Below are positions 14,212 through 30,460 of a stretch of DNA of 34,086 nt, one piece after another. Location: positions 1-34,086 of the forward strand of contig JAPWVK010000159.1 in NCBI GenBank assembly GCA_029241965.1. Reading direction: 5' to 3'. The notes under the pieces were generated by a model, which saw only the letters and a list, made by a program, of their open reading frames with translations, had not been told where the DNA came from and ran no database searches. The number at the start of each line of letters is the position of its first letter. Within the stretch, counting starts at the first letter, position 1. The stretch is from Candidatus Methanophagales archaeon. Lineage in GTDB: Archaea; Halobacteriota; Syntropharchaeia; Alkanophagales; Methanospirareceae. The position numbers and the translations under genes were made by a program.

Positions 14212-14530
14212 GAAGCTGCATCGCAGATTGCCCGTGCGGCTACCCCCGCCATTCGGGGTAATCCTACTGCGGAACACGTCGGGGGTAACGCTTGCGTGGT
14301 AAGCTCGCAGGACAACGTGGAAAATCAGAAAGTCCGATTTGGATCAACTGCCAGGATAAGAACGCTATTTGTTGACAAGAAGTTGCATCACCGATTGCCT
14401 AACCGGGTACCCCCGCCATTCGGGGTAATCCTACCGCGGAATGCGCGGATGGGAACGTCCACGTAGTAAGCCCGCGGAACAACGTGTAAAATCTGAAAGT
14501 CCGGTTTAGATCAACTGCAAGGATAAAAAC
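14212..14530 (+). repeat. tandem duplication (2 x ~167 nt) covering the 5' exon-intron junction and 5' part of group II intron B
   Basis: Unit 1 (14212-14378) is GAAGCTGCATCGCAGATTGCCCGTGCGGCTACCCCCGCCATTCGGGGTAATCCTAC.... Unit 2 (14379-14530) is GAAGTTGCATCACCGATTGCCTAACCGGGTACCCCCGCCATTCGGGGTAATCCTAC.... The GTGCG 5' splice motif is present only in unit 1. Confidence 0.75.
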
Positions 14531-15155
14531 ACCATGAAGAGCGTAAAGCGAACCATTGTAAGAGTCGTCACGTATAATAAGCGAAAACGGACTGTTACGC
14601 TTGGACCAAAAGGTACGGAATTTGGCCATAATGGCTACCATAACGTTATGGTGGGTGGACATACGATTCCCGGCTTACAGGCGGCTTCTAAGGTGTTCAT
14701 AAATATCTGTGATGTAGAACGTGGTAAGCCCTATATGCTCCCGGAATCACAGGGTAGGGACCTCGTAAGGGTAAACGATGGCTTAGAGGGTAGAGGATTT
14801 GGTAAAAAGCGAATGGCATCTTGTAATGAAAGGTATAGGGGTTCGAAATTTGCCCTAACCCGAAAGGGTGCTGACTTACCAAATTGGTGTTCCATTGTAT
14901 GCTTGGAGGCAGAATGTAAGTAGTTCAATTACGCCTGTAATAGGCGAGCGACTTACAGACATTCAACCAAAACGCCGATATCATATGGAAAGAGGTTGAA
15001 GAACTTGTTAACAGGTTGCAAACCTGAATTACAAAAGCAGTTAACTGCTGCCCGATACAGAAAGGGTTATGAAATGCTTGAGCGGTATGAAGGGAAACTT
15101 TCACGTACCGTTCTGAGACGAGGAGGGGCGAGCAATCGCCCCATCCTTAGTCTGC
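14234..15155 (+). mobile_element. ORF-less group II intron, copy B (~0.9 kb including the internal duplication)
   Basis: The 5' end is GTGCG at 14234. Domain V is a canonical 34 nt at 15080-15113 (GAGCGGTATGAAGGGAAACTTTCACGTACCGTTC), with the AGC triad, a GAAA loop and a 2-nt CG bulge. Domain VI has a GCAA tetraloop (GGGGCGA-GCAA-TCGCCCC) and a bulged A at 15149. The 3' boundary is only approximate (+/-10 nt). There is no RT/maturase ORF. Confidence 0.8.
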
Positions 15156-16979: not shown

Positions 16980-17783
16980 CTATTTCCTCTTTACGTAGTA
17001 ATAAAAACCTACAATGCCAATTATAACCAAAGCGACAATTAGAATGATTAAGAGTTTGTACGTTTGTTTTGGCGACACAGGCGCAGGAGTAATTGTTACC
17101 GTGGGTGCAGGTGTTGCAGTTATTGTTTGTTTAGTCAATGCAGGAGTTACTGCGGGCGCATCAGAACCAGGATAGGAATGTTGGTCATTCGGATCGGTTC
17201 CTACAAACGTCTCATCTATGTCGCGATAACCGTCTCCATCTGCGTCCGTTTCTCCGCCCGCGCCACTCCGATTATATGGTGGTGTGGTAGTCACTACGTA
17301 TAACAGCCCATTTCTTGCGGCTGACGTTCCGAAATTGCCCTCGGGATCCGACAATTCGATATCACTCAGCGTCATATGGCTATAATTTATCGAATCAGAT
17401 GTTCTTTCCACGCTAAAGTTGAGCAAAGCAATTGAACCACTTGACCCATTTGATATGGCATATGCAAAAGGACCAGCGAGTGAAACACGAGTCCCCCCCT
17501 CAAAATCGTTGTTAAACCCTAAAACATTCCATTCCAACGTTAGTTCCCCTCTTAAAACGTTTGTAACGTTTATGACTCGCTTGTCATAAGCTATATTAAA
17601 TACAATAGCTTGAACCGGCCCGTTTTTTACTGTTGTTATATTTACTGGCACGATTACATGTGTTCCCTGCACTCCACTTGCATCTACCAGACCAAAACCA
17701 TCGGCACTTGGCTGTGCAGATACGGGTATCAGTGCTATTACCAAACACATGCCTATTCCATACGCTAACGTTTTAATATTCAT
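16980..17783 (-). CDS. cohesin-domain surface protein with Ca-binding TSP3-like repeat, Thr/Pro linker and C-terminal TM anchor
   Basis: The signal peptide is MNIKTLAYGIGMCLVIALIPVSA; the start is set at 17783 rather than 17822. The cohesin-like domain has GTHVIVPVNITTVKNGPVQAIVFNIAYDKRVINVTNV...GSIALLNFSV...LSDIELSDPEGN. It also has a DADGDGYRDIDETFVGTDPND repeat. The C-terminal anchor is LLIILIVALVIIGIVGFYYYVKRK. Confidence 0.75.
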   Translation of the reverse strand: MNIKTLAYGIGMCLVIALIPVSAQPSADGFGLVDASGVQGTHVIVPVNITTVKNGPVQAIVFNIAYDKRVINVTNVLRGELTLEWNVLGFNNDFEGGTRVSLAGPFAYAISNGSSGSIALLNFSVERTSDSINYSHMTLSDIELSDPEGNFGTSAARNGLLYVVTTTPPYNRSGAGGETDADGDGYRDIDETFVGTDPNDQHSYPGSDAPAVTPALTKQTITATPAPTVTITPAPVSPKQTYKLLIILIVALVIIGIVGFYYYVKRK

Positions 17784-17794
17784 TTCTTTCTCCG

Positions 17795-18661
17795 TTATAC
17801 AACCCTTATTGCAGGAACCCAATCATCGTATATCTCCCCGTTTGCGTCCGTGAATTTGGTGCAGGTAATTTCTCCGCCTGTTACGTTTATTCTATGTTCG
17901 TGTACTATCTGCGGATATGATCCTGTTTTTATTGTATAGTTGTACTTTTTACCTTCTCTTAATTTAAATGTATTCGTGAAATTTATGTTTTGATACTCGT
18001 CATTGTAACCGTTCCATGAGGCACTTTCATTCACGCCATGCCCCTGAATCCAAACGTATTCGGTATGCCCGCCTGTGCCTTCACAGGAATACGTATAGAG
18101 TGTATGCACGGTAATATCAGCATTCGGCGTAATCGTTCCTATGTGTATGCCGGAGATGGAGGGATAGGTGCCTGGGCCCGTATGGAATATTGTTTTTTCG
18201 AGCACATTTACTGAGATCGGAATCCTAAGGCCAGAATATTCATTTCCACCAATATTTGTATCCTGAAATTGAATATACATCCTTCTCTCATCGGAATGCC
18301 CTACTTCGCATGCGCTTCCCGACGTTGCGCCATATAATCCTGGTTCGGCATTCTTTGGTATCTTGATTGTAACAGTAAAAGTTTTTATTTCTCCACTCTT
18401 GATCGTGTACTTCTCTGGTTCGACTCTGATCCATGATGTAATGTTAATCAATTCTTCATCATCTTTCTCTACATGCTCGTAATATACGGACCAATATCCA
18501 GTTCTCTCAGTAGGTATTGTCCCCACTAGTGTGATATTTTGATTTAATGTATCACCCGGACAGCCTTCCCAGTTGCACATAGAGCGGCAATCAACCGATG
18601 TCGCGGATGCCGCCGGAACGCACAACAGTGCAATCAACATTATCAGTATTATTTTCTTCAT
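17795..18661 (-). CDS. secreted surface protein: N-terminal Ig-like domain (paralog of 30464..31722 proteins) fused to a conserved C-terminal beta domain shared with 18800..19729
   Basis: 288 aa with a signal peptide. The N-terminal half aligns with 30464..31066 and 31063..31722 (CxxEGxxGD...TSWIxVxPExYTIKxGE...PGLYGATS...GHSxERRxYI). The C-terminal ~130 aa (YPSISGIHIGTITPNADITVHTLYTYSCEGTGGHTEYVWIQGHG...) is near-identical to the C-terminus of 18800..19729. Confidence 0.75.
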   Translation of the reverse strand: MKKIILIMLIALLCVPAASATSVDCRSMCNWEGCPGDTLNQNITLVGTIPTERTGYWSVYYEHVEKDDEELINITSWIRVEPEKYTIKSGEIKTFTVTIKIPKNAEPGLYGATSGSACEVGHSDERRMYIQFQDTNIGGNEYSGLRIPISVNVLEKTIFHTGPGTYPSISGIHIGTITPNADITVHTLYTYSCEGTGGHTEYVWIQGHGVNESASWNGYNDEYQNINFTNTFKLREGKKYNYTIKTGSYPQIVHEHRINVTGGEITCTKFTDANGEIYDDWVPAIRVV

Positions 18662-18799
18662 AATTACCTGTACTATTTTCGTATTAAAAGTACTTTATTA
18701 ATTTCATGCTCTTTGGTGTTTCCTTTGGCGCTATTACCAAACACAGCGCACTAATGCTTAATCCATACGCTAACGTTTTAATATTCATTTCTTTCTCCG

Positions 18800-19729
18800 T
18801 TATACAAACCTTATTGCAGGAACCCAATCATCGTATATCTCCCCGTTTGCGTCCGTGAATTTGGTGCAGGTGATTTCTCCGCCTGTTACGTTTTTGCTAT
18901 GTTCGTGTACTATCTGCGGATATGATCCTGTTTTTATTGTATAGTTGTACTTTTTACCTTCTACTAATATAAATGTATTCTCGAATTCTATGTTTTGATA
19001 ATCGTCATTGTAACCGTCCCATGAGGCACTTTCATTCACGCCATGCCCCTGAATCCAGACGTATTTGGTATGCCCGCCTGTGCCTTCACAGGAATACGTA
19101 TAGAGTGTATGCACGGTAATATCAGCATTCGGCGTAATCGTTCCAATGTGTATGCCGGAGATAGAGGGATAGGAGCCCTGACCCGTATCGAATAAAGTTC
19201 CGGTAGTATAAAACGTCCCGTTCTTCACTGGTGCTGGTCCTTCGTTACCAGACGGATCCGACAATTGAATATCACTCAGGTTCATGTCAGTTTTATATGG
19301 TGCACCGCCTATGACGCGGAAGTTAAGAAGGACGACAGAACCACTTGAGCCATTCAGTATGGCATGAGCGGATGGTCCTGAGAGTAAAACACGGGTACCC
19401 CATGCAAAGTTGTTGTTAAAGCCTAAATTGCCCCAATTAGACGTTAGAGTACCTCTTGAAACGCCTGTAACGTTTATAACCGTCTTGTCATACGCTATGT
19501 TGAATACAATGCCTAAAATCGGACCGCTGCTTGTATTTGTAATGTTTACCGGCACGGTTACATAAGTCCCTATAAGCCCATTGGCATCGTCAACACCGAA
19601 ATTATCTGCGGTGGGCGCCGCCAGAGCCGTTAACTCAAATATAGCAAATACCGTTAACAACCCGAATATAGCTAAACCCCCTCTCAGTCCTATTAAGCCT
19701 CTTCGTTTCCTCGATGCGGTTTTTTTCAT
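18800..19729 (-). CDS. cohesin-domain surface protein fused to the shared C-terminal beta domain
   Basis: 309 aa. It has a signal/TM segment and a cohesin-like domain (GTYVTVPVNITNTSSGPILGIVFNIAYDKTVINVTGV...GSVVLLNFRV...LSDIQLSDPSGN). The EGTGGHTKYVWIQGHG domain follows. Confidence 0.75.
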   Translation of the reverse strand: MKKTASRKRRGLIGLRGGLAIFGLLTVFAIFELTALAAPTADNFGVDDANGLIGTYVTVPVNITNTSSGPILGIVFNIAYDKTVINVTGVSRGTLTSNWGNLGFNNNFAWGTRVLLSGPSAHAILNGSSGSVVLLNFRVIGGAPYKTDMNLSDIQLSDPSGNEGPAPVKNGTFYTTGTLFDTGQGSYPSISGIHIGTITPNADITVHTLYTYSCEGTGGHTKYVWIQGHGVNESASWDGYNDDYQNIEFENTFILVEGKKYNYTIKTGSYPQIVHEHSKNVTGGEITCTKFTDANGEIYDDWVPAIRFV

Positions 19730-19760
19730 TGTAGTATAATATTTCTTTGGTAAAGCTTTT

Positions 19761-20810
19761 TCATTTCTTCTTTCGCAACCAAAGGTATCCCATGAGTACG
19801 AGCAATCCTCCAGAAACGAGGGTCATTGTACTCCATTCAGGAATCGGGTAGCCCGGGTCCGTTCCGGGTGATGATATGTAGCTCCATGCCATACCGGTCT
19901 GCACCTTGTAGTCATAGCTCGTATTGTTGTTTGTCAGATTGAGTGCTAAAAACTTTCCTGCCGGCACAGTAAACGCTGCTGCGGTTGTTTCAAACGAGAA
20001 GACGCTTTTGCTGCCGTTTCCAGTCAGTGTTGCCTGTGGTCCTCCGGCAGTAAAATTGGTGCCACCCGAAGAATTACCTATCTCAACCTTGAATGTATCT
20101 CCGTCTGCCGGTGCCGCGACAAACGTTATCTGCCCTGTCCAATTGTTGCCATTCACTGGAAAGGTAACGTCTGTCTGCGCCGCTGAATCCGCAACCCAGA
20201 TATGAGAGTCGCTGTGGTTTATGGTAATATTACCCTGTGGTTTGGTCTGGTTTCCCTTGTACATCTCGCTGTCGTTGTGCAGATACCAGGACTGTGTGCC
20301 GCTGACAGTAAAAGTCCCATTCTTTGGGGGGGCAGATCCTATTCTATAACCGCTTACATCTGAGAAGCTTATATTTACATACGTAAAGTTCATAGTACTT
20401 GTTTCACCCCGAGTTCCAATAACGCTGAAGTTGAGTAGAGCGACAGAACCACTTGACCCATTTGATATGTTATATTCGGCAGCTCCCGTCATGTAAACAC
20501 GAGTACCCCATGTAACGCTGTTGTTATAGTCGAAATTATTCCAACTAGACGTTAAATTACCTTTTAAAACGTCTGTAACGTTTATGACATTTTTGTCATA
20601 CACAATATTAAATATTATTCCCAAAAGTGGACCGTTGCTAACATTTGTAATGTTCACCGGCACAATCACCGAAGTCCCATGTGCGCCACTCGCATCGTCC
20701 ACACCAAAACTTTCCGCAGTAGGATCTTGTGCTGAAACAGGCATCGCCATTACAAGTACTGACAACAGCACGATTGCACTTAGTCCATGCACCCATCTAT
20801 TTCTATTCAT
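19761..20810 (-). CDS. cohesin-domain surface protein with a second beta domain and a C-terminal sorting/anchor signal
   Basis: 349 aa with a signal peptide. The cohesin-like domain has GTSVIVPVNITNVSNGPLLGIIFNIVYDKNVINVTDV...GSVALLNFSV. The C-terminus is PIPEWSTMTLVSGGLLVLMGYLWLRKKK: a motif, a TM helix and a basic tail, resembling PEF/PGF-CTERM archaeosortase-type signals (inference). Confidence 0.75.
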   Translation of the reverse strand: MNRNRWVHGLSAIVLLSVLVMAMPVSAQDPTAESFGVDDASGAHGTSVIVPVNITNVSNGPLLGIIFNIVYDKNVINVTDVLKGNLTSSWNNFDYNNSVTWGTRVYMTGAAEYNISNGSSGSVALLNFSVIGTRGETSTMNFTYVNISFSDVSGYRIGSAPPKNGTFTVSGTQSWYLHNDSEMYKGNQTKPQGNITINHSDSHIWVADSAAQTDVTFPVNGNNWTGQITFVAAPADGDTFKVEIGNSSGGTNFTAGGPQATLTGNGSKSVFSFETTAAAFTVPAGKFLALNLTNNNTSYDYKVQTGMAWSYISSPGTDPGYPIPEWSTMTLVSGGLLVLMGYLWLRKKK

Positions 20811-22343: not shown

Positions 22344-23801
22344 TTATACCGCTTCTCCCAACACCGACACCGTGGATGTGTCCGTTCCCGACCCTTTCAG
22401 CTCGTATGCCAGATACAAGTCATTGTAAGTTCCTACGGATACTGTTACCCCTGTATCTTTATAGCTACCCCATGACTTTAGAGTAGTCCAGCTACTGACC
22501 GCCCAGGGGCTCGTGTCATCTACGGTTACATTACAGAAATGAACCGGATAACTCTCTATGGCTGAAGACGTATTTGCATCCCTGACGAAGCATGCTAGCG
22601 TTATTGTCTCCCCTACGGTGTAACTATTTTCGTCAGGAGGCAAATCCCATGTTACGTTTGACCAGCCCCACTTAACCACCGACTCATTCTGATAAGAGCT
22701 GTTAGAATTAGATGCATTGTCATAAGTTGTTTCGGTAATATTGTATTCTCCGTCCTCAGGGACGGACAAAGTAACGACAAAAGTTCCATTTGTGGCGTTT
22801 GTAGTTGAATTGACTATCTTTCCTTCGTAAGGCACTTTGTCTATTTTCTTGATGATTACAGGTTTATTATTCTCATCAAGGGCGACCAAAATTCTTCCAT
22901 CCGAAATCTTCTGGTAGATGTTTTCTATCCTTATAAGAGAGAATTTATTTATATACCCGTTGCCAATATTATCAGTGGTGGTAGAAATGTCGGAAGTCGA
23001 AATCAGGTTTAAAGTTCCCACGGGATTGAAGGAAGAGATGGAAGAGCTTCCGGGAATGGAAGAGATGGTTGTAGAATTCATAAGGCTGAAGATTTTCGAG
23101 CATGAATTGAAGAAGTCTAAGGAATTACAGAGGTTCATATTTGAGTCGTTGTCCGCAAAGAGCAAATTGACGCTGGCAGATGCTATTGAACTTGGGGCGA
23201 AAATGAAGGAAGGAATGCTTGAAGAGCTCAAAGAGAAGGGATTACTGTAGATGAGACTGGTTGTGGATGCAAATGAGCTGTTCGCGGGGATAATCGCTAA
23301 AGGTAAGGAATTACAGAGTTGGACGCTGGACATATTATTTTCAGATGAAGTTGAATTGTTCGCACCTTTCATATTGCTTGCCGAATTGGAGAAGAACAGG
23401 GATGAGATAAGGGAAAAGTCAGGATTTTCCCTGAGGGATTTTGATGTGTTCGTTGGCATCCTCAAGTTAAGAGTCGGATTTATCCCTCTGGAGCGGTTTT
23501 TAGCTAAGATTCCGGAGGCTAAGGAGTTGGCACCGCATTTAAAAGATGTCGAATATTTCGCATAAGCATTGAAACTTGATTGCCCAATCTGGACGCAAGA
23601 AAAAGCGTTCAAAAAACAATCTGTAGTCAAGGTGTTCTCAACTCTTGATTTGTTTTCGTTTTTATCCGAGACAGGCCCATAGCCCGCTAAAGAGGTTGAA
23701 GGATATTTTGGATTGACTGAAGTGTAAACCTTATGCTCTGGCGAAAACGTCAGAACTGTTTCGTATCTACTCAAATCCATAAATCTTATTTTTTGCTTCA
23801 T
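22344..23801 (-). CDS. orphan 3' fragment: decayed Hint unit (no Cys1, truncated block F/G) fused to a shortened copy of the giant protein's C-terminal domain; probably a remnant or silent cassette
   Basis: Its ATG overlaps the giant gene's stop (ATGA at 23798-23801). The N-terminus KQKIRFMDLSRYETVLTFSPEHKVY aligns with QKPIKYLEYDY...LLVSPEHKVY. The middle ~230 aa is a Ser-rich translation antisense to TA cassette c. The C-terminal ~190 aa aligns with the giant protein's C-terminus. The last ~100 nt are about 90% identical by eye to 23798-23895. Confidence 0.55.
   Translation of the reverse strand: MKQKIRFMDLSRYETVLTFSPEHKVYTSVNPKYPSTSLAGYGPVSDKNENKSRVENTLTTDCFLNAFSCVQIGQSSFNAYAKYSTSFKCGANSLASGILAKNRSRGINPTLNLRMPTNTSKSLRENPDFSLISSLFFSNSASNMKGANNSTSSENNMSSVQLCNSLPLAIIPANSSFASTTSLIYSNPFSLSSSSIPSFIFAPSSIASASVNLLFADNDSNMNLCNSLDFFNSCSKIFSLMNSTTISSIPGSSSISSFNPVGTLNLISTSDISTTTDNIGNGYINKFSLIRIENIYQKISDGRILVALDENNKPVIIKKIDKVPYEGKIVNSTTNATNGTFVVTLSVPEDGEYNITETTYDNASNSNSSYQNESVVKWGWSNVTWDLPPDENSYTVGETITLACFVRDANTSSAIESYPVHFCNVTVDDTSPWAVSSWTTLKSWGSYKDTGVTVSVGTYNDLYLAYELKGSGTDTSTVSVLGEAV
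22987..23250 (+). CDS. small antitoxin-like protein, cassette c (antisense inside 22344..23801)
   Basis: Starts MSEVEIRFKVPTGLKEEMEEL and ends ...GAKMKEGMLEELKEKGLL. Layout and length match the antitoxins of cassettes a and b. Its stop abuts the PIN start (TAG-ATG). An AT-rich TATA-like ATTTATTTATATA lies about 35-45 nt upstream. Confidence 0.6.
   Translation: MSEVEIRFKVPTGLKEEMEELPGMEEMVVEFIRLKIFEHELKKSKELQRFIFESLSAKSKLTLADAIELGAKMKEGMLEELKEKGLL
23251..23682 (+). pseudogene. PIN-domain (VapC-like) toxin, cassette c, interrupted by an in-frame TAA at 23563-23565
   Basis: Starts MRLVVDANELFAGII.... It reads ...APHLKDVEYFA-stop-ALKLDCPIWTQEKAF...SETGP, compared with cassette b ...SPDPNDVDFFALALKLNCPLWSEDKLL...SLISP. 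The stop replaces a Leu (TTA to TAA). Homology continues in frame to TAG at 23680-23682. Confidence 0.6.
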
Positions 23802-26800
23802 ACCGCTTCTCCCAACACCGACACCGTGGATGTGCCCGTTCCCGACCCTTTCAGCTCGTATGCCAGATACAAGTCTTTGTGTGTTCCTTTGGATACTCTT
23901 ACCCCTGTATCTTTATAGCTACCCCAAGATTTTAGACTAATCCAGCTACCAACAGCCCCGGGGCTCGTGTCATTTGCGGTTACGTTAAACTTCTCGTCAT
24001 TTATTATTGTTGACCAACCGTTCACCTCTTCTACCTTCAGCCAGATCTTGTATTCAGTCGAAGAAGAAGGATTGTAAATTGTAACTACTGGTGAGTTACT
24101 GGTCACATTTTGCGGGTTGCCGCTGCCGTCCGCATTATTGTGTGGGTCAACTACTGTGGCACCAGTTGCACCCGAGAAGTTAATGGAACTGATACTCTGC
24201 GAAGCAGTTTGATTTCTGATTTCAAGTGTCGTTGCGTATGACAACTCTATGGATGTATTGGCTTCATCATCCGCAGTGACGTTATAAAACAGCGTGGCAT
24301 TATCCGTGATATTACATTTTGGATAGTACCATCCTACTGCCACGCCTGATGTATCCCAATCCAGGACGGCATATCCGCTGCTATTCGTGTAATTCAGACC
24401 AAGGTATGTCACGGTAGAGTCAGTCTTGTTATAAAAACGAACCGGATAATTCTCTATGCCCGATGAGGTATTGACATCGCGGACAAGGCATGTTAGCGTT
24501 ATTATCGCACCTGATTCGTAACTACTTCCGCCGGAAGGCGAGCCCCACGTTACGTTTGACCAACCCATCTTAAACACCGATTGATTTTGATACGAGATAT
24601 TATAATTCGATGCGTTATCATACATCTCTACCGACACGTTGTATTTCCCCTTAGCAGCACTTGAATTTAGATAAAAACTCGCATTTACATACGAATTTGG
24701 TGTGTAAGCAGTATCCGACGACGAATTGATGGTCGCAGTAGCGTTGTATATCGTGACCGTGTAGTTCTTTGGATTATCCTCCGTGTACGAGAAGTTGACA
24801 TAAAACTGCTCGCCGCCCTTCTTGTAGATTGGAACGGAAGTTGTAGGCACGTCTATCGTGATAGTCGGTGATTGCGAATCTATGGTGAAGTTCGTACCGA
24901 GCCACGTCTCTGACGTCTCGCCCTCATCGTCTGTTGCCACGCAATGCAACGTATAGAGTCCGGGACTATAATTGGATGCGTTGAACGCTATATCGGCAAT
25001 CCCGCCAGCGGCATCCGCTTCGGTAAAAGTATTGTTTACTATCGAAATAAATGTCTGGTTCGGATAGCACAAAGTCAGATTATGAACCACTGTGCCGCCG
25101 TCCGGATCGGTCGCAACCCCAACACCAATATCGAATATACCGTCATAGCTACCATTCATATCATAGTCCTTTACACCACTGATATTGAAATACCTAATGT
25201 GCGGGACGGTAGGTGGATAGTGCACCAATCTGATGTCGTTTGTAAGCAGCGTTGAATTGCTCCAACTACCCGATGCGTTTGCTGCATACAGCTTCATCTG
25301 GTGCTGCATACCACTTTTAGAGTAGTCGAAAAATAACTTCGGCGTCCATGCCGCCTGCAAAAATGACGAGCCATCATTGGTACTCGTCCATGCAACGTTT
25401 GTTTGCGCAAACGATATGTTCATACCGCTCGTACCATCTACATACGCCAGGCGGTACTCATTGCTTGTAGCTGTCGGAGATCGGAAGTATATGTATCCAT
25501 GCGGTGTTGTGTTTACGTCAGAACCTATAACCCTGCTATTGTTCACACCAATCGTAAAGGTCACGAACGAACTGTTGTACGGCTCGTACGTGTAATCATC
25601 TACTGTTGTGCCAGTGTACGAAGTCAAGTAAGTATAATATGGACTTTCGAGTGGCTTACCGCCAGTGATGTTATACGAGTCGTTTAGGTAGTAAATATCA
25701 AGATTGTTCGATGCTCCCAGATCGGTTGCCTCGAAAGCGATATGTATTTTATAGTCCGAAGAACCTTTAATTGCTTCAGTGTCCCAGAACTTGACCAGAG
25801 CAGCACGGTATCCTGTTGAGCCCTGTTTATAGATGTCATAATATTTGCTAATCTCTTTCTGCATCCGCGTCCTATCTAAGTAATACATGTTCTCAAATAC
25901 AGTATTCTCAACCGTGCCATTCCAGTGCACATACGAGTGCGTGTCATTTACCTTTTGGATAGTAAGCCGGGAAGTGTTTTCATCCGCGCCCGCCCATTTC
26001 CAGACGTTGCCCTCTGTGATGGTGGCATTATCCTCAAAGTTCAAGCGCTGTATTGTAGCATTCCGGTTATCGGCACGTAGAATCTGCTCGTTGCATAAAG
26101 CCCATACCGCAGATTTGTTGTTGCTCGGAACACGGAGTGACCAGTTATAACTATCGAGCACCGAGTCCCAGAGCGTCCAGACGAGCGATACGCTGCTGTT
26201 ATTGAGTGTATGTGTAGCATCCGTAGTAACCAACCAGGTTACGTTGAATGCACCGGTCGAGTTCTCGTAAATCGTAGCCGGCTCCTGCGAGATGAGTTCA
26301 AATGTCGGACAGCCCGCCTGATTGTATGCATAATCGACGTCACCACCAAATCGAAACTCTAATGCGTGTTTGCCCGAAGTTAAAACCTTACTTGTTTCGT
26401 AGCTGGTTTCGTTACAGGAATAATTGTGTATGAATAAGGAATTGTTTCGCCATTGATAATCCAGTGTGCGATTGCCGCATTTCAGGGCAAGCAATTGCAG
26501 GTCATAGTTTGAGTTGCCGCACCAGACAGGCGTTGAGTTTTTACGCCGTATTAAAAGTATGCGGTTCGGGACGGTAACAGAGTAAATCTTGCCGTTATAA
26601 GGGACTTCTTCGATTTTTTTTACTGCTACGGGATTCTGTTCGGAATCGAGGAATACTAACTGTTTGTCGGGTAGCTCGTGGAGTTCCGAGATTTTTAGCA
26701 ATGAATAGGTATTTAAACCGTTCGGATTTATAGTATTAGTGATGACGGTTTCTTTTTCATTCACGGTCACAGGCATCGAGAAGTTATTTAAATACAGCAA

Positions 26801-29800
26801 GTTAGTTTTATTATTGGTGAGAGAAATGGCCGAAATAGTTGTTAAGGTTCCAGAGGATATTGGTATAGAGCTTGGTAGGGTTTCAGAAGAGAATTGGCAA
26901 TTGTTATTCTCAAGATTCCTGAGAAGAGAGCTGGAAGAAATAAGAGGGATCGAAGCGATAGTATCTAAATCAAAACTAACAGAGGAGCAAGCCAAAGAAT
27001 TAGCAGATGAAGTAAGTTTAGCGATAGCTAAAAGACTTCTTGAGAAGTGATTCGAGATGTTATTGGTAGTTGACGCTAATGTCGTATTCTCAGCACTAAT
27101 AAGAAGAGGCAAGCCATTAAGGGTATTTGAGTTGAACAAGCTTCTCATGAAATTTGAATTTATTGCACCAGAGTTCCTGTTCTTTGAGGTGGGTAAAAGA
27201 ATGGATAAAATACTCAAGCTCACAGATTTATCTAAAGAAGAGTTCATAACGGTTTTTTCATTCATTAAGAATGAACTCGAGCTAATTCCTCTTGAAACAT
27301 TTGAAGATAAAGTTGATGAAGCCAAGGAGAGATCACCACACTTGAAGGATATGCCATATGTTGCTTTATCCCTCAAATTCGATTGTAAGATTCTGTCTGG
27401 AGATAAAGGAATAAAGGAATGCTTGCCTGGTAGAGTCATCATACCATCTAAAGCCTTAAGAATTCTATTTGGGAGGACTGCACCATAAACCTTATGCTCA
27501 GGCGAAACCAGCAGTTGACTGCCATCTTCCAGAGTAAGCTCGAACATCGCATCCGAATAGTCGTATTCCAGATATTTAATCGGTTTCTGATTGCAAAAAA
27601 GTTTTGTGTGTTCTTTTGTAATTTGTGGTTTCCTTGTGGTTTCGTTATGCCGTTTCACCAGCACGATGTCGTTCGGGACGTCAACGTCATAAATCTTGCC
27701 GGTATAAGGGACTTCTTCGATTTTTTTTACTGCTACGGGATTCAGCTCGGAGTCAAGGAATACTAACTGTTTGTCTGATAGCTTGTCATAGAGTTCCGAT
27801 ATTTTTAGCAATGAATAAGTATTTAAATACAGCAAGCCAGTCTTATAATTAGGGGCGATAGAAATGTCAGAGTTAGTTGTTGAGGTTCCAGGATTGCTTA
27901 GAGGAGAGGTTGGTAAGCTAGAGCGAGAGATAGAGGAGCTAATATCGTGGGAGGAGAAGCGTAAATTACTCTCTCTGTTCATGGATGAGGTTATGAAAGA
28001 TGCTAAACAGTTGAGCGAAGACGAACTGGTTACACTTGGAAGAGAGATTAAGAAAGGCAGGTTTGAAAAGCTCAAGCAAAGGGGGTTTGTATGAGTGCGG
28101 TTAGTTGCTGACACAACCGAACTCTTCTCGTTCTTCAACGCTCGGTCAAAGGCAAGGGAGTTATCCATAATCCCTGAATTGGAATTACATTCCCCCTCCT
28201 TTTCTTTATATGAACTCAAAGAACATAAATCCAAGATTCTTACGAGTTTCTCGTTGACCGAGACACAGTTTCTATTGATAATGAAGTTGCTTAAGACCGT
28301 TGTAAAAGTTGCTAAAGAGGAAGAATACTCGGATTTTCTATCGGAGGCTAAGGAAATATCTCCAGACCCTAACGATGTAGATTTCTTTGCGTTGGCTCTG
28401 AAACTGAACTGTCCGCTTTGGTCAGAGGATAAGCTGCTAAAGGGGCAGTCTAAGGTTAAGGTACTCTCTACAAAAGATTTACTTGAACTTTTATCTCTCA
28501 TCAGCCCATAAACCTTATGCTCAGGCGAAACCAGCAGTTTACTGCCATCCGCCAGAGTAAGCTTGAACATCGCATCCGAATAGTCGTATTCCAGATATTT
28601 AATCGGTTTCTGCCATTCCTGCTCTCCCGTCTCCTGGTTTAAAGTCAGAACTTCTTCTTCTGGTTCTAAATCTTTGAACAGTTTCCAGCCTTCTTTTGTT
28701 AGAACCTCGGTTTCTTCGTCGTAACATTCGTACGGTTGGTTAGTCCAGGTCGTCCCGTTAACCGCGGTTATAGTCAAATCCGCAGTTCCTTCCGTCTCGA
28801 ACTTGACAGACCAGTTTCCACCTACTGCTGGATAAGACTGGACATTAATTATACTAATCGGATCAACAGCAACATACCAGGGTCTTGCCTCTGTAAATGT
28901 TTCTGAATCATAACTAATTTCCGCAGTACCTAAAGCGTACAAATAAGGCCACACAGGAGGAACTGCGTAAGAATAACTGACAGATGTTTTCTTGCCAATT
29001 AAATCTTTATTCCAGGTTATTGTCTTTGTATCGTCTTCCTGCATAACCGTAGCGGCATCCGTTGAATACACATCGAACTCAGCAGGCACAAATTCTTTTA
29101 ACGTTACGGATTCCGCATCAGTAAAGCATTCTACGTCAATCCTGACCTCAAACCTGTCCTGCAGTGTGGGGTCTATCTTGCTTTGTGTCGTTCTTATGAT
29201 GTCGAATTCATACTCCGGCTGAACCCGGAAATACGTATTGAAGAATACTTCAACGTTGTCAATTAAACCCGTGACTGAGATCGAGTGATTACCCTCTATT
29301 TCCGTTGGGTAATCCAGGTTATAAATGCCAGATTCGCTACTTGCGGTAATCGTGCCATCAGCGGTGGAATAAATCGTTTCCTCGTTATCGGGATTGTTTA
29401 CGGTTAAATAAAGATCGGCATTGCTGACTGAGTGCCCTGCTTTATCCAGGACAACGATAACGAATTCCACGGTTTCACCGGGTTTGTAGATGCTTTTTTT
29501 GGTGTTTACGGAAACAAGGCCCCACGGGAATTCGGATTCTAAAACGTAAACGTGCTCGTCCTTCACTAACTCCACACTTAATGTATATACGCCCACTCGG
29601 AATGCTCGTTCCTTAGGCAATTTAATTGCGAATTTGCCTTCGCCTTTTTTCGCTATTTCGGGCGCGATGTCTGTTAGTGCACCCGAAGAATCATAAACAA
29701 AAGTCTCTATCGTTTCGTTTTCTGTCACCCAGCGTTTCAATGCTTTTTGGGGTGCGCCAATAGCAGCTTCCTCACTTACAGTGCTAAGCATTTCCCGCGA

Positions 29801-30460
29801 TGCGTTTTCGGTAACATTTTCATTAAAAGTTTTCTGCGAAGCGTTTTTGATAAAACTTTTATTAAAAGTTTTATATTCAAACGAAAAAGTCGGTTCCTCA
29901 TCCAGGGAATAAGACTCTTTGTTTGCAATTAGTTTTGGCGGTTCAATCACGGATTCCGTAACATTAATATTACGTGATTCACCTGTTGATTCGTTAATCG
30001 TATAATTCAAACCGATGACGGAGGTATTATCAGTTGCATTTTCCGGTGTTTGTATCGTAACGCCCGAGGCATTACCTGTTGTATTATCCGTTGTATTTTC
30101 CGGTGTTTGTAACGTAACGCCCGAGGCATTACCTGTTGTACTATTATTAGTTGCAGTTTCAGGTGTTTGTATCGTAATGCCCGTGGCATTATCAGTTGTG
30201 TTATCAGTTACATTATCAGGTGATAGTATCGGATTTATCGGTGCCGTTACGTCCGTAATATTTTCTGACGGGGTATCATTAAGGTTAGTTACGTATGATG
30301 TAATGTTTTCAGGCAGCGTTGTGTTCTCGTTTTGTGTTGCACCAAAAGCGATTAAAGGCACGATAAGCAAAGCTATGACAATTGTAATGCGTGCGCTCTT
30401 CCAGTTTGTTTTTGCTCTTAGCATCTTTTCGCAGGTCAAGCTTCCTTTTCTATCATACAT
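23798..30460 (-). CDS. giant (2220 aa) secreted, sequon-rich surface protein interrupted by a composite Hint/intein region
   Basis: Single uninterrupted ORF. The N-terminal hydrophobic signal/anchor is ARITIVIALLIVPLIAFGA. It has three tandem ~19-aa repeats (GNASGVTxQTPENxTDNT) and very many N-x-S/T sequons. It is beta-rich throughout. The intein blocks lie at aa 579-1308. It is tightly packed with upstream genes: 3-nt gap, then an ATGA overlap. Confidence 0.85.
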   Translation of the reverse strand: MYDRKGSLTCEKMLRAKTNWKSARITIVIALLIVPLIAFGATQNENTTLPENITSYVTNLNDTPSENITDVTAPINPILSPDNVTDNTTDNATGITIQTPETATNNSTTGNASGVTLQTPENTTDNTTGNASGVTIQTPENATDNTSVIGLNYTINESTGESRNINVTESVIEPPKLIANKESYSLDEEPTFSFEYKTFNKSFIKNASQKTFNENVTENASREMLSTVSEEAAIGAPQKALKRWVTENETIETFVYDSSGALTDIAPEIAKKGEGKFAIKLPKERAFRVGVYTLSVELVKDEHVYVLESEFPWGLVSVNTKKSIYKPGETVEFVIVVLDKAGHSVSNADLYLTVNNPDNEETIYSTADGTITASSESGIYNLDYPTEIEGNHSISVTGLIDNVEVFFNTYFRVQPEYEFDIIRTTQSKIDPTLQDRFEVRIDVECFTDAESVTLKEFVPAEFDVYSTDAATVMQEDDTKTITWNKDLIGKKTSVSYSYAVPPVWPYLYALGTAEISYDSETFTEARPWYVAVDPISIINVQSYPAVGGNWSVKFETEGTADLTITAVNGTTWTNQPYECYDEETEVLTKEGWKLFKDLEPEEEVLTLNQETGEQEWQKPIKYLEYDYSDAMFKLTLADGSKLLVSPEHKVYGLMRDKSSSKSFVESTLTLDCPFSSLSSDQSGQFSFRANAKKSTSLGSGDISLASDRKSEYSSSLATFTTVLSNFIINRNCVSVNEKLVRILDLCSLSSYKEKEGECNSNSGIMDNSLAFDRALKNEKSSVVSATNRTHTNPLCLSFSNLPFLISLPSVTSSSSLNCLASFITSSMNRESNLRFSSHDISSSISRSSLPTSPLSNPGTSTTNSDISIAPNYKTGLLYLNTYSLLKISELYDKLSDKQLVFLDSELNPVAVKKIEEVPYTGKIYDVDVPNDIVLVKRHNETTRKPQITKEHTKLFCNQKPIKYLEYDYSDAMFELTLEDGSQLLVSPEHKVYGAVLPNRILKALDGMMTLPGKHSFIPLSPDRILQSNLRDKATYGISFKCGDLSLASSTLSSNVSRGISSSSFLMNEKTVMNSSLDKSVSLSILSILLPTSKNRNSGAINSNFMRSLFNSNTLNGLPLLISAENTTLASTTNNISNHFSRSLLAIAKLTSSANSLACSSVSFDLDTIASIPLISSSSLLRNLENNNCQFSSETLPSSIPISSGTLTTISAISLTNNKTNLLYLNNFSMPVTVNEKETVITNTINPNGLNTYSLLKISELHELPDKQLVFLDSEQNPVAVKKIEEVPYNGKIYSVTVPNRILLIRRKNSTPVWCGNSNYDLQLLALKCGNRTLDYQWRNNSLFIHNYSCNETSYETSKVLTSGKHALEFRFGGDVDYAYNQAGCPTFELISQEPATIYENSTGAFNVTWLVTTDATHTLNNSSVSLVWTLWDSVLDSYNWSLRVPSNNKSAVWALCNEQILRADNRNATIQRLNFEDNATITEGNVWKWAGADENTSRLTIQKVNDTHSYVHWNGTVENTVFENMYYLDRTRMQKEISKYYDIYKQGSTGYRAALVKFWDTEAIKGSSDYKIHIAFEATDLGASNNLDIYYLNDSYNITGGKPLESPYYTYLTSYTGTTVDDYTYEPYNSSFVTFTIGVNNSRVIGSDVNTTPHGYIYFRSPTATSNEYRLAYVDGTSGMNISFAQTNVAWTSTNDGSSFLQAAWTPKLFFDYSKSGMQHQMKLYAANASGSWSNSTLLTNDIRLVHYPPTVPHIRYFNISGVKDYDMNGSYDGIFDIGVGVATDPDGGTVVHNLTLCYPNQTFISIVNNTFTEADAAGGIADIAFNASNYSPGLYTLHCVATDDEGETSETWLGTNFTIDSQSPTITIDVPTTSVPIYKKGGEQFYVNFSYTEDNPKNYTVTIYNATATINSSSDTAYTPNSYVNASFYLNSSAAKGKYNVSVEMYDNASNYNISYQNQSVFKMGWSNVTWGSPSGGSSYESGAIITLTCLVRDVNTSSGIENYPVRFYNKTDSTVTYLGLNYTNSSGYAVLDWDTSGVAVGWYYPKCNITDNATLFYNVTADDEANTSIELSYATTLEIRNQTASQSISSINFSGATGATVVDPHNNADGSGNPQNVTSNSPVVTIYNPSSSTEYKIWLKVEEVNGWSTIINDEKFNVTANDTSPGAVGSWISLKSWGSYKDTGVRVSKGTHKDLYLAYELKGSGTGTSTVSVLGEAV
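26826..27050 (+). CDS. small antitoxin-like protein, cassette a (antisense inside the giant ORF)
   Basis: Starts MAEIVVKVPEDIGIELGRV and ends ...SKSKLTEEQAKELADEVSLAIAKRLLEK. The start is set at the internal Met (26826) by analogy with cassettes b and c. TATTTAAATA at 26785-26794 and a GGTGA SD-like motif precede it. It ends 6 nt before the PIN start. Confidence 0.65.
   Translation: MAEIVVKVPEDIGIELGRVSEENWQLLFSRFLRRELEEIRGIEAIVSKSKLTEEQAKELADEVSLAIAKRLLEK
27057..27488 (+). CDS. PIN-domain (VapC-like) toxin, cassette a
   Basis: 143 aa with a PIN acidic quartet layout: LLVVDANVVFSAL (Asp), FFEVGKR (Glu), SPHLKDMPYVALSL (Asp), KILSGDKGI (Asp). Its last codons overlap, antisense, the HKVYG block-B codons of Hint unit 2. 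Confidence 0.8.
   Translation: MLLVVDANVVFSALIRRGKPLRVFELNKLLMKFEFIAPEFLFFEVGKRMDKILKLTDLSKEEFITVFSFIKNELELIPLETFEDKVDEAKERSPHLKDMPYVALSLKFDCKILSGDKGIKECLPGRVIIPSKALRILFGRTAP
27864..28094 (+). CDS. small antitoxin-like protein, cassette b (antisense inside the giant ORF)
   Basis: Starts MSELVVEVPGLLRGEVGKLEREIEEL and ends ...QLSEDELVTLGREIKKGRFEKLKQRGFV. TATTTAAATA lies at 27820-27829, about 35 nt upstream. Its stop TGA directly abuts the GTG start of the PIN gene. Confidence 0.65.
   Translation: MSELVVEVPGLLRGEVGKLEREIEELISWEEKRKLLSLFMDEVMKDAKQLSEDELVTLGREIKKGRFEKLKQRGFV
28095..28511 (+). CDS. PIN-domain (VapC-like) toxin, cassette b (GTG start)
   Basis: 138 aa: RLVADTTELFSFF (Asp), SLYELKEHK (Glu), SPDPNDVDFFALAL (Asp), PLWSEDKLL (Asp). 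The layout matches cassette a although the sequence is divergent. Its 3' end overlaps, antisense, the HKVYG codons of Hint unit 1. Confidence 0.75.
   Translation: MRLVADTTELFSFFNARSKARELSIIPELELHSPSFSLYELKEHKSKILTSFSLTETQFLLIMKLLKTVVKVAKEEEYSDFLSEAKEISPDPNDVDFFALALKLNCPLWSEDKLLKGQSKVKVLSTKDLLELLSLISP
30039..30215 (-). repeat. three tandem 57-60-nt coding repeats in the giant protein N-terminus
   Basis: The plus-strand unit is TTTTCCGGTGTTTGTATCGTAACGCCCGAGGCATTACCTGTTGTATTATCCGTTGTA, repeated at about 30039, 30096 and 30156. It encodes T(D/G)NxxG(I/V)TxQTPExxTxNx(T/S) repeats rich in sequons. Confidence 0.8.

Follow-up and report, generated by a model that had tools for sequence, protein, structure and literature searches.

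Predicted toxin–antitoxin operons nested antisense within an archaeal intein

Can complete operons, with their own stop codons, lie within a coding sequence that is still translated across them on the other strand? This question is raised by contig JAPWVK010000159.1 of a Candidatus Methanophagales archaeon (assembly GCA_029241965.1), of which positions 1 to 34,086 were analysed (34,086 nt, hereafter the window). Its minus strand contains a 2220-aa open reading frame (ORF) for a surface protein, interrupted by intein sequence, and within the intein the plus strand encodes pairs of small genes resembling toxin–antitoxin modules. Our preferred reading, to which we assign a probability of roughly 60%, is that an intein of ordinary type has had its endonuclease domain replaced by independently transcribed antisense toxin–antitoxin cassettes, which would be spliced out with it, protected by addiction and exchanged by recombination. 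The coordinates of the features are collected in Table 1.

Anatomy of the intein and its cargo

Residues 579-1316 of the host protein matched the Pfam profile Intein_splicing with an E-value of 3.5e-9, above the curated cut-off, and the TIGRFAM profile TIGR01445 (intein_Nterm) with an E-value of 2e-12. The Cys1 codon (28724-28726) supplies the nucleophilic first residue, and block B reads LLVSPEHKVY, in which the His is present and Ser stands where T-x-x-H has Thr. At the other end, the terminal Asn (26513-26515) precedes a +1 Ser (26510-26512); the junction VWCGN|S, in which the bar marks the splice site, spans 26510-26527, and the penultimate intein residue is Gly, not His. We set the C-terminal junction here because related inteins carrying a LAGLIDADG endonuclease (P0114, P0117 and P0120) end in ...VRRNGxxVW[SC]GN|[SC], and the window element ends in ...LLIRRKNSTPVWCGN|SNYDL. 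A preliminary description of this DNA had recognised the intein blocks in the flanks, which the profile matches bear out, and had bounded the element at 26537-28726. Its N-terminal limit stands, and its C-terminal limit, based on a terminus RRKN|S, has to be moved to 26513.

Two Hint units can be distinguished, as first described; they do not each possess intact termini. The C part of unit 1 ends in VLVKRHN, without the VWxGN motif and without the last six profile positions, so that the two units share one intact pair of splice termini. As judged from its profile matches, the 738-aa element is a head-to-tail composite with that single pair. In four intein-free homologues of the host domain (P0137, P0138, P0140 and P0141), the sequence runs ...AVNGTT, 7-8 further residues and DL[KQL][FL]L..KCG..., and aligns across the junction. 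The predicted ligation product, ...AVNGTTWTNQPYE|SNYDLQLLALKCG..., has a loop of the length found in these homologues. The predicted ligated junction peptide is ...TWTNQPYESNYDLQLLALK (also written ...AVNGTTWTNQPYESNYDLQLLALK), and the intein-free junction DNA would be of the type ...AACCAGCCGTATGAG|TCAAACTATGAC.... The alignment shows the intein to be inserted in a predicted loop of a conserved, compact host domain that is contiguous in intein-free relatives. A reading as a bacterial intein-like (BIL), pre-toxin or polymorphic-toxin Hint domain was ruled out by the +1 Ser and the homologous extein on both sides, and for the same reason the element is classed as splicing-type rather than release-type. 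We infer that the whole element is removed by protein splicing.

The LAGLIDADG inteins compared, such as the three named above, belong to the same Hint family, with N blocks 40-50% identical and the ending ...VRRxGxxVW[SC]GN|[SC] in common. All intein endonuclease domains share one insertion site (PMC6801210), and the extra material of these canonical inteins sits at the same insertion point between blocks B and F as the window cargo. Alignment with them shows the cargo in the slot that their in-frame LAGLIDADG domain occupies, where it had been supposed to lie. Searches of the window with Pfam and TIGRFAM found no known homing-endonuclease domain (LAGLIDADG, HNH, GIY-YIG etc.) in the products of either strand. 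In an AlphaFold2 model made from an alignment of 16 sequences (mean predicted local distance difference test, pLDDT, of 42), the Hint parts have pLDDT values of 75-87, and the two antisense-coded stretches have values of 27-31 and no secondary structure. Foldseek searches of the ordered parts against the PDB matched only intein, BIL and Hedgehog Hint structures (E ~1e-3, probability 1.0), scores that are weak because 75% of the model is disordered. The host-frame translation of each cassette is Ser/Leu/Asn-rich and about 220 aa long (linker example ...SSLSSDQSGQFSFR...); on the model, we read it as a disordered loop emerging from the Hint fold where inteins usually have their endonuclease inserted, in keeping with its first description as a linker.

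The cargo consists of two gene pairs on the plus strand. The downstream genes, T1 and T2, encode putative toxins that were correctly assigned to the PIN domain: both match PIN_2 and conserve its acidic residues. D6 and D98 are invariant, E44 occurs in at least 90% of the sequences, and most have D or E at the fourth position. Their proteins are just 30% identical to each other, T1 has 95% identical counterparts in two related archaeal assemblies, and the 3' end of T2 extends into the last part of Hint block B, which is encoded on the opposite strand. In profile searches, the PIN_2 family matched PDB entry 2fe1 (a PIN-domain protein of unknown function), HARP (an RNA-free RNase P) and VapC6. 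The partner ORFs upstream of T1, T2 and T3 (the latter in a decayed third unit) are 74-87 aa each, and gene callers place the equivalents of A1 in loci L007, L008 and L009 at 74-77 aa. A 74-100-aa gene precedes the toxin in every case, whether PIN_2 or RelE. These small upstream proteins form one family with the N-terminal motif MxxITLSVPEELK and a ribbon-helix-helix-like appearance; a precomputed PF26688 RHH_12 tag and a weak VapB match (E 0.008) point weakly the same way. We read the window cargo as two type II toxin–antitoxin operons, each with a ribbon-helix-helix-like putative antitoxin and a predicted PIN_2 ribonuclease toxin.

Each operon has a TATA-box-like sequence of its own, which on the host strand reads as L-Y-L-N codons. 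Boxes resembling TTTAAATA or TTTATATA lie at similar distances in many related loci, as far as motifs tell. The boxes were found by eye and by simple motif listing; a sigma-70 promoter scanner was set aside because the organism is an archaeon. Substitutions indicate purifying selection on the cassette, with 15/302 doubly synonymous against 16/1258 doubly nonsynonymous changes. A per-strand analysis of three close orthologues also gave purifying selection (11/390 against 7/528), a comparison that discriminates weakly because both frames share synonymous sites.

The open frame opposite the cargo

Antisense orientation is the only way to fit complete genes with their own stops into a single continuous translated host ORF. 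The host ribosome would read through the reverse complement of each cassette, which can work because antisense reading turns the stop codons of the cargo into Leu or Ser codons and selection removes stops on the host strand. The host frame indeed has 0 stops over all six plus-strand ORFs in the window, as first reported, against 5-13 in each of the other two antisense frames. All cargo genes of the window share one phase with respect to the host frame, wobble base opposite wobble base. Here the host frame acquires a stop only where a cargo Tyr codon follows a codon ending in T or C, or a His or Gln codon follows one ending in T, and T1 and T2 contain only two and six Tyr, His or Gln residues, respectively. 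When codons were permuted synonymously, or resampled with window or uniform codon usage while the cargo proteins were held fixed, about 30-53% of recodings stayed stop-free for each embedded cassette and 17-25% for the decayed third. The chance of about 1e-5 that had been put forward for such a frame used the wrong null. Its three occurrences cannot be counted separately, as the copies are homologous and not independent. The stop-free recodings also exceed the 5% that had been proposed as the limit, so that the window by itself does not establish selection. We rejected the window shuffle as a test because the wobble-to-wobble constraint acts mostly on amino acids.

Comparison across loci is more informative. 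An alignment scan with the Hint N-terminus, using one genome per species and blind to downstream content, returned 80 loci. Antisense cargo was present in about 35 of the 80, with an uninterrupted frame from Cys1 to xGN|S in 32. The cargo-bearing assemblies are labelled as Woese-, Pace-, Nano- and Aenigmatarchaeota, Altiarchaeota, Methanosarcinales and Methanobacteriota, and a few as bacteria. When the ORFs of all loci were searched with profiles, 141 cargo genes emerged, every one of which has exactly one stop-free antisense frame, the other two containing 1-30 stops. PIN_2, antitoxin and DUF5615 genes lie in the wobble-to-wobble phase and RelE/ParE-like and DUF433 genes in the codon-aligned phase, the shift arising from overlaps with the partner gene (4 nt for RelE, ~40-250 nt for DUF433/DUF5615). 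The codon-aligned phase stays open only if TTA, CTA and TCA are wholly avoided. These codons number 5-30 per PIN_2 gene and 0 in 21 RelE and DUF433 genes of the same loci.

Expected stops were obtained by resampling synonymous codons according to the usage of each locus. For 115 non-redundant cargo genes about 143 host-frame stops were expected (69.7 in 20 aligned-phase and 73.3 in 95 wobble-phase genes), and 0 were observed in both groups. The cargo loci share 30-60% protein identity, a distance at which synonymous sites are effectively randomised. For an outside control, metagenomes were scanned by PIN similarity alone with the narrower alignment A4, the broad alignment A3 being too diverse. 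Among the 82 PIN_2 genes retrieved, 47 had 0 stops in the wobble phase and 35 had 1-7 (mean 3.7); in the non-open genes, 134/385 Tyr, His and Gln codons follow a dangerous wobble base. The Tyr, His and Gln content was 4.3% in open-frame PIN_2 proteins and 7.1% in the others (p = 2e-9). The antisense-coded peptide, used as a query against 1.84 billion cluster representatives, returned 56 proteins, several of which (1259-3994 aa) hold it internally. Taken with the codon comparisons, these data from beyond the window show that the host frame has been kept stop-free by selection and that the two strands are co-constrained, as the preliminary description had proposed.

Cargo turnover and competing explanations

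Pfam assigned the cargo of the related loci to several families: PIN_2, ParE/RelE-like proteins (E 1.6e-4 and 3.4e-3, just under the curated cut-off) and the pair DUF5615 and DUF433 (E 1.5e-14 and 3.2e-21). It had been asked whether the cargo between homologous Hint flanks always consists of antisense toxin–antitoxin genes; in a few loci it is instead a single gene without a toxin–antitoxin signature, for an aspartyl protease or a small hydrophobic protein. The second slot of L007 (959-1321, +) contains a lone 120-aa retropepsin-like aspartyl protease (Asp_protease_2, E 3e-11) with no partner gene and the host frame open. Arrays at one insertion site differ, with two PIN_2 cassettes in the window, PIN_2 and the aspartyl protease in L007, and PIN_2, RelE and DUF5615/DUF433 in L009; P0108 (Altiarchaeota) has RelE cargo at the orthologous site. 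P0100 appears, from the similarity of its host frame to L009 and P0099, to carry RelE-type cargo followed by a remnant of a DUF433-type unit. The flanks of the window cassettes are 96% identical in DNA over 107 nt in Hint block B (27483-27589 against 28506-28612) and 87-90% identical over ~160 nt comprising Hint block F and the promoter (26559-26717 against 27666-27827). Similar flanks around dissimilar toxins, in arrays that vary, fit an exchange of cassettes by homologous recombination through the Hint-coding arms.

Among relatives, the form met most often is a single unit with complete termini, and empty mini-inteins of the same Hint family also occur (L046 and P0111). Members with a LAGLIDADG domain (PF14528) are found in other host genes and on a different branch. 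The Hint family is common in viral contigs, in which no PIN_2 relative was detected, and no cargo was seen in 80 viral loci with this Hint family; there is thus no evidence for a viral vehicle.

Several smaller observations concern cargo and insertion sites. L019 (474-743) and L022 (1486-1704) encode an antisense hydrophobic protein of 72-89 aa with an apparent membrane-spanning segment by eye, and L032 (6226-6678) has a different 150-aa antisense ORF in the codon-aligned phase that looks PIN-like. Many cassettes have an extra small ORF 5' of the antitoxin (e.g. L027 7797-7955, L013 6831-7037 and L037 6891-7061), whose stop overlaps the antitoxin start (TAAATG) and whose product ends in ...RGEL/RGVI; this ORF could represent either a third component or what is left of another antitoxin. 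Hint block A of the P0110 and P0111 proteins contains a further insertion of ~150 aa (CYDNETEILTR[...]EKCYREEWKLFKDL), suggestive of a second insertion site.

The cassettes are not restricted to this intein family. At L114 (1-3597, -), a 1199-aa open ORF for a tail-fibre-like repeat protein contains two antisense PIN_2 cassettes within an intein of a second, unrelated and classical family (CVAEDSLITL ... TATHPYL ... VYDLAMEDNSNFIANDIIAHN|T, ending in ...IIAHN|T; Intein_splicing E 5e-23). In L001-L006 (e.g. L001 3400-5700), the two PIN_2 cassette types of the window stand side by side without Hint sequence. There the cassettes are interspersed with three short ORFs of the minus strand (signal peptide and AADPGHGAGVIGSADFxSGNYSF) downstream of a 1521-aa LamG protein, with a single in-frame TAG between one short ORF and the open antisense frame. 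The cassette of L093 adjoins a gene segment encoding a short hydrophobic N-terminus, and that of L131 lies upstream of, and in frame with, a gene resembling by eye the AlbA_2/HATPase_c_4 family. Because such cassettes are open as well, the open antisense frame appears to belong to the cassette lineage and not to depend strictly on an intein as its site; inteins are the context identified most often and not the sole one. It is possible, though we hold this only tentatively, that antisense-open cassettes, made up of toxin–antitoxin operons and some further small genes, form a distinct class evolved for translatability of the opposite strand and colonising translated DNA, in which inteins of at least two unrelated families serve as splice-out platforms for integron-like, addiction-stabilised arrays that are concealed in one coding gene and turn over via their Hint flanks.

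In the preferred reading, the whole 738-aa element would be spliced through its sole intact termini, unit 1 supplying Cys1 and unit 2 supplying VWCGN|S, and each cassette would be expressed from its own TATA box placed within host codons. The toxin–antitoxin pair would penalise loss of the DNA that carries it, and in this way shield an intein lacking an endonuclease from deletion or from an intein-free allele. Cassettes would hop between intein copies by homologous recombination via the Hint flanks, giving variable arrays at one insertion site.

A number of observations weigh against this reading. The element is composite and its inner junction degenerate; it has Gly for the penultimate His and Ser for the block B Thr. 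AlphaFold2 is most confident about the N part and about the C part of unit 1, where the terminal Asn is missing; given an alignment of 16 sequences and a mean pLDDT of 42, the model is not decisive on which Hint halves pair. In searches against Pfam, NCBIfam and PDB profiles the antitoxin-like family had no significant match, so that of the four plus-strand genes proposed for such a search only the toxins found their family. The window-only synonymous shuffle was not significant, and the joint probabilities behind the comparison across loci are only indicative because these loci are related by descent. Open-antisense cassettes without a recognisable Hint flank exist (L001-L006, L093, L098 and L131). 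Finally, a single nonsense codon interrupts the Hint N part both in L009 (TAG for Tyr at 2212-2214) and in L012 (TAA for Glu at 2044-2046), which means that the host gene can decay. The rest of their host frame is intact, and the codons reflect either recent pseudogenisation or assembly errors. Reading the in-frame TAG of L009 and L001 as pyrrolysine was dropped for want of support, the corresponding kind of break in L012 being TAA.

Four other explanations were considered. The cassettes might themselves be selfish, mobile or defence units whose open antisense frame evolved for lodging in translated sequence, with no gain to the intein; inteins would then be no more than the most suitable site to land in, since splicing takes the insert out of the protein. 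The presence of the same PIN_2 cassettes in the second intein family of L114, their open frame outside recognisable inteins (L001, L093, L098, L131) and the breadth of the cargo, which spans unrelated toxin–antitoxin families, an aspartyl protease and a small hydrophobic protein, would all be expected of such units. However, the surroundings of the cassettes showed no transposase, integrase or terminal repeats belonging to them, the flanking repeats are Hint-coding sequence, and most long host ORFs with cassettes are Hint-bearing LamG surface proteins. We consider this explanation, which overlaps the preferred one and differs mainly in the beneficiary, rather unlikely. It is more improbable that the composite no longer splices and persists as a permanent disordered insert, or cleaves only in the manner of a BIL domain, with the frame held open for translation of the C-terminus. 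One intact pair of termini beside a degenerate junction, the missing penultimate His and the AlphaFold2 confidence for the truncated first C part could be so understood, and surface proteins possibly tolerate disordered inserts. Against this, Cys1, S-x-x-H, the terminal Asn and the +1 Ser are kept here and in about 30 relatives, the insert splits a compact domain that is contiguous in intein-free homologues, and the commonest form is a single unit with complete termini.

RelE is an RNase, and RelE/ParE-like proteins and DUF5615/DUF433 pairs are toxin–antitoxin modules; to our knowledge none of these is a site-specific DNase. Since the cargo is interchangeable and includes such families, a homing function for it is very unlikely: the PIN_2 or RelE protein would have to be the homing nuclease of the intein, with the small partner as DNA-binding subunit. 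The position in the endonuclease slot, the nuclease nature of PIN domains and precedents for free-standing or out-of-frame endonuclease genes in inteins (PMC2677866; bioRxiv 10.64898/2026.09.14.751524) speak for it, but the nearest solved relatives of PIN_2 are a PIN protein of unknown function, a VapC toxin and an RNA-free RNase P, and no known homing-endonuclease domain was detected in the cargo. Least credible of all is that toxin–antitoxin genes broke an intein pseudogene whose frame is open by chance because the cargo is poor in Tyr, His and Gln. The proportion of window recodings that stay open and the nonsense codons of the two orthologues suit this account; it is contradicted by the absence of stops where ~143 were expected in 115 genes, by codon avoidance specific to the phase of each gene, by the division of PIN-retrieved homologues into 47 with 0 and 35 with 1-7 stops, the open group being poorer in Tyr, His and Gln, and by the antisense-coded peptide in 56 cluster representatives, including proteins of 1259-3994 aa. 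An intein with addictive antisense cargo in place of its endonuclease remains our preferred explanation.

How does such an intein compare with known systems? The window cargo differs from canonical inteins in lying on the other strand, unfused, with its own promoter-like box and stops; it consists of toxin–antitoxin operons, and the host-frame product is a low-complexity linker. Integron arrays, plasmids and genomic islands are stabilised by toxin–antitoxin cassettes, which presumably guard them against loss. Like integron arrays, the loci described here hold toxin–antitoxin modules in variable arrays that differ between close relatives at one site; unlike integrons, they show no integrase or attC, and the array lies inside a translated gene with Hint-coding repeats as boundaries. 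Pre-toxin Hint domains of polymorphic toxins and BIL domains occur in large, secreted, variable surface proteins. The window resembles them in having a Hint domain in a protein of this kind and a truncated downstream copy (22344-23801), and differs from polymorphic toxins in that its toxins, instead of forming C-terminal tips, are separate proteins of cytoplasmic type encoded on the other strand. Toxin systems with Hint domains have been mentioned before (PMC3113570).

Overlapping genes within inteins and other insertions are also on record. A cyanobacterial DnaX intein contains a same-strand, out-of-frame endonuclease gene (bioRxiv 10.64898/2026.09.14.751524); there too a separate gene overlaps the intein coding sequence, and the intein frame is weakly constrained beyond its openness. 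The DnaX gene lies on the same strand in the +2 frame and encodes a LAGLIDADG enzyme, whereas here one to three two-gene operons lie antisense and encode no homing enzyme. In the 'ShiLan domain', an HNH endonuclease is hidden out of frame in an insertion of a phage methylase (PMC11855218). It shares with the window an insertion that is open in the host frame, an independent gene in another frame and a host product predicted to loop out; it differs in having no splicing domain, a same-strand gene and an endonuclease as its product. Fractured genes, in which a free-standing endonuclease gene stands between the halves of a split intein (PMC2677866), likewise place an independent gene in the middle of an intein in an interrupted host gene, but their host ORF is split in two and trans-spliced, while that of the window stays continuous. 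The full texts searched, with subscription journals outside their coverage, contained no description of antisense toxin–antitoxin cargo in an intein, in agreement with the earlier statement that no such intein or BIL element had been described.

To that extent, this would be the first natural case found of complete operons, with promoter-like boxes of their own, nested antisense in a translated intein, with ~650 nt per cassette apparently read, and demonstrably selected, on both strands. It suggests a possible route by which inteins could persist without a homing endonuclease, through addiction instead of homing, and a way for mobile genes to sit in coding DNA without destroying the host protein. 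The loci extend inteins to secreted archaeal surface proteins (DPANN, Altiarchaeota and relatives of ANME/Methanosarcinales), where they are normally unexpected. They also offer a natural test set for antisense dual coding, one phase being solved by the choice of amino acids and the other by the choice of codons. For annotation, gene callers return either the giant ORF or the toxin–antitoxin genes, rarely both.

Host gene and neighbourhood

The host protein has a hydrophobic N-terminal segment, many N-x-S/T sites and an MG2 domain (Pfam). Its closest relatives come from assemblies labelled Methanosarcinales and Methanophagaceae/Methanophagales, and the orthologues at L007, L009 and P0108 have an intein at the identical site (...NQPYE|C).

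Table 1. Features of the intein locus in the window
Feature	Position	Strand	Description
Host gene	23798..30460	-	2220-aa ORF; secreted or anchored surface protein
Composite intein	26513..28726	-	738 aa, host residues 579-1316; Pfam and TIGRFAM matches
Hint N part, blocks A and B	28505..28726	-	Complete, CYDEETEV...LLVSPEHKVYG; HintN profile positions 1-74, E 1.9e-40; pLDDT 75-85
Hint C part of unit 1	27641..27829	-	Block F; block G truncated; HintC positions 8-71 of 77; pLDDT 76-87
Degenerate internal junction and partial second Hint N part	27482..27640	-	No Cys1; profile positions 37-74 only, at 27482-27595
Hint C part of unit 2, blocks F and G	26513..26722	-	Complete, ends …GKIYSVTVPNRILLIRRKNSTPVWCGN; HintC positions 7-77, E 9e-24
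Antitoxin-like A1	26826..27050	+	74 aa, ATG at 26826; listed ORF from 26739 is an upstream extension
Toxin T1	27057..27488	+	PIN_2, 143 aa, PF10130 E 8.4e-22
Antitoxin-like A2	27864..28094	+	76 aa, abuts T2; in antitoxin cluster common to PIN_2 and RelE cassettes
Toxin T2	28095..28511	+	PIN_2, 138 aa, GTG start, PF10130 E 2.7e-20
TATA-box-like TATTTAAATA	26785..26794	+	32-41 nt 5' of A1 start; GGTGA at 26816-26820; repeat family D7
TATA-box-like TATTTAAATA	27820..27829	+	~35-45 nt 5' of A2 start; AGGGG ribosome-binding-like site 27851-27855
Decayed third unit	22344..23801	-	485-aa ORF directly downstream of giant gene; partial duplicate of its C-terminus
A3	22987..23250	+	Antisense antitoxin-like ORF in decayed third unit
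T3	23251..23565	+	Truncated PIN_2, E 2e-9 (Pfam), decayed third unit

In the decayed third unit, Hint blocks B (~23707-23753) and F (22803-22961) survive as remnants, and the host frame is still open. Its C-terminal copy is 74-90% identical in DNA to 23800-23987 and 24429-24645, and the ORF recalls, by analogy, the orphan modules of variable surface-protein loci.

The neighbourhood, which encodes GyrB, an STT3-type oligosaccharyl transferase, a class I tRNA synthetase, CoaBC, MatE and three cohesin-domain proteins, is that of an ordinary chromosome. The Rfam gathering thresholds are exceeded by two group II intron RNAs, one at 1553-2173 (-; RF02005 with 112 bits, and RF00029) and one at 14244-15155 (+; RF02012 twice, and RF00029). 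Only short ORFs overlap them, none of reverse-transcriptase size; these ORFs were not compared with protein families. The cohesin-domain proteins are encoded by three adjacent genes beside the surface-protein locus (16980-20810, -; E 8e-8 to 6.5e-13).

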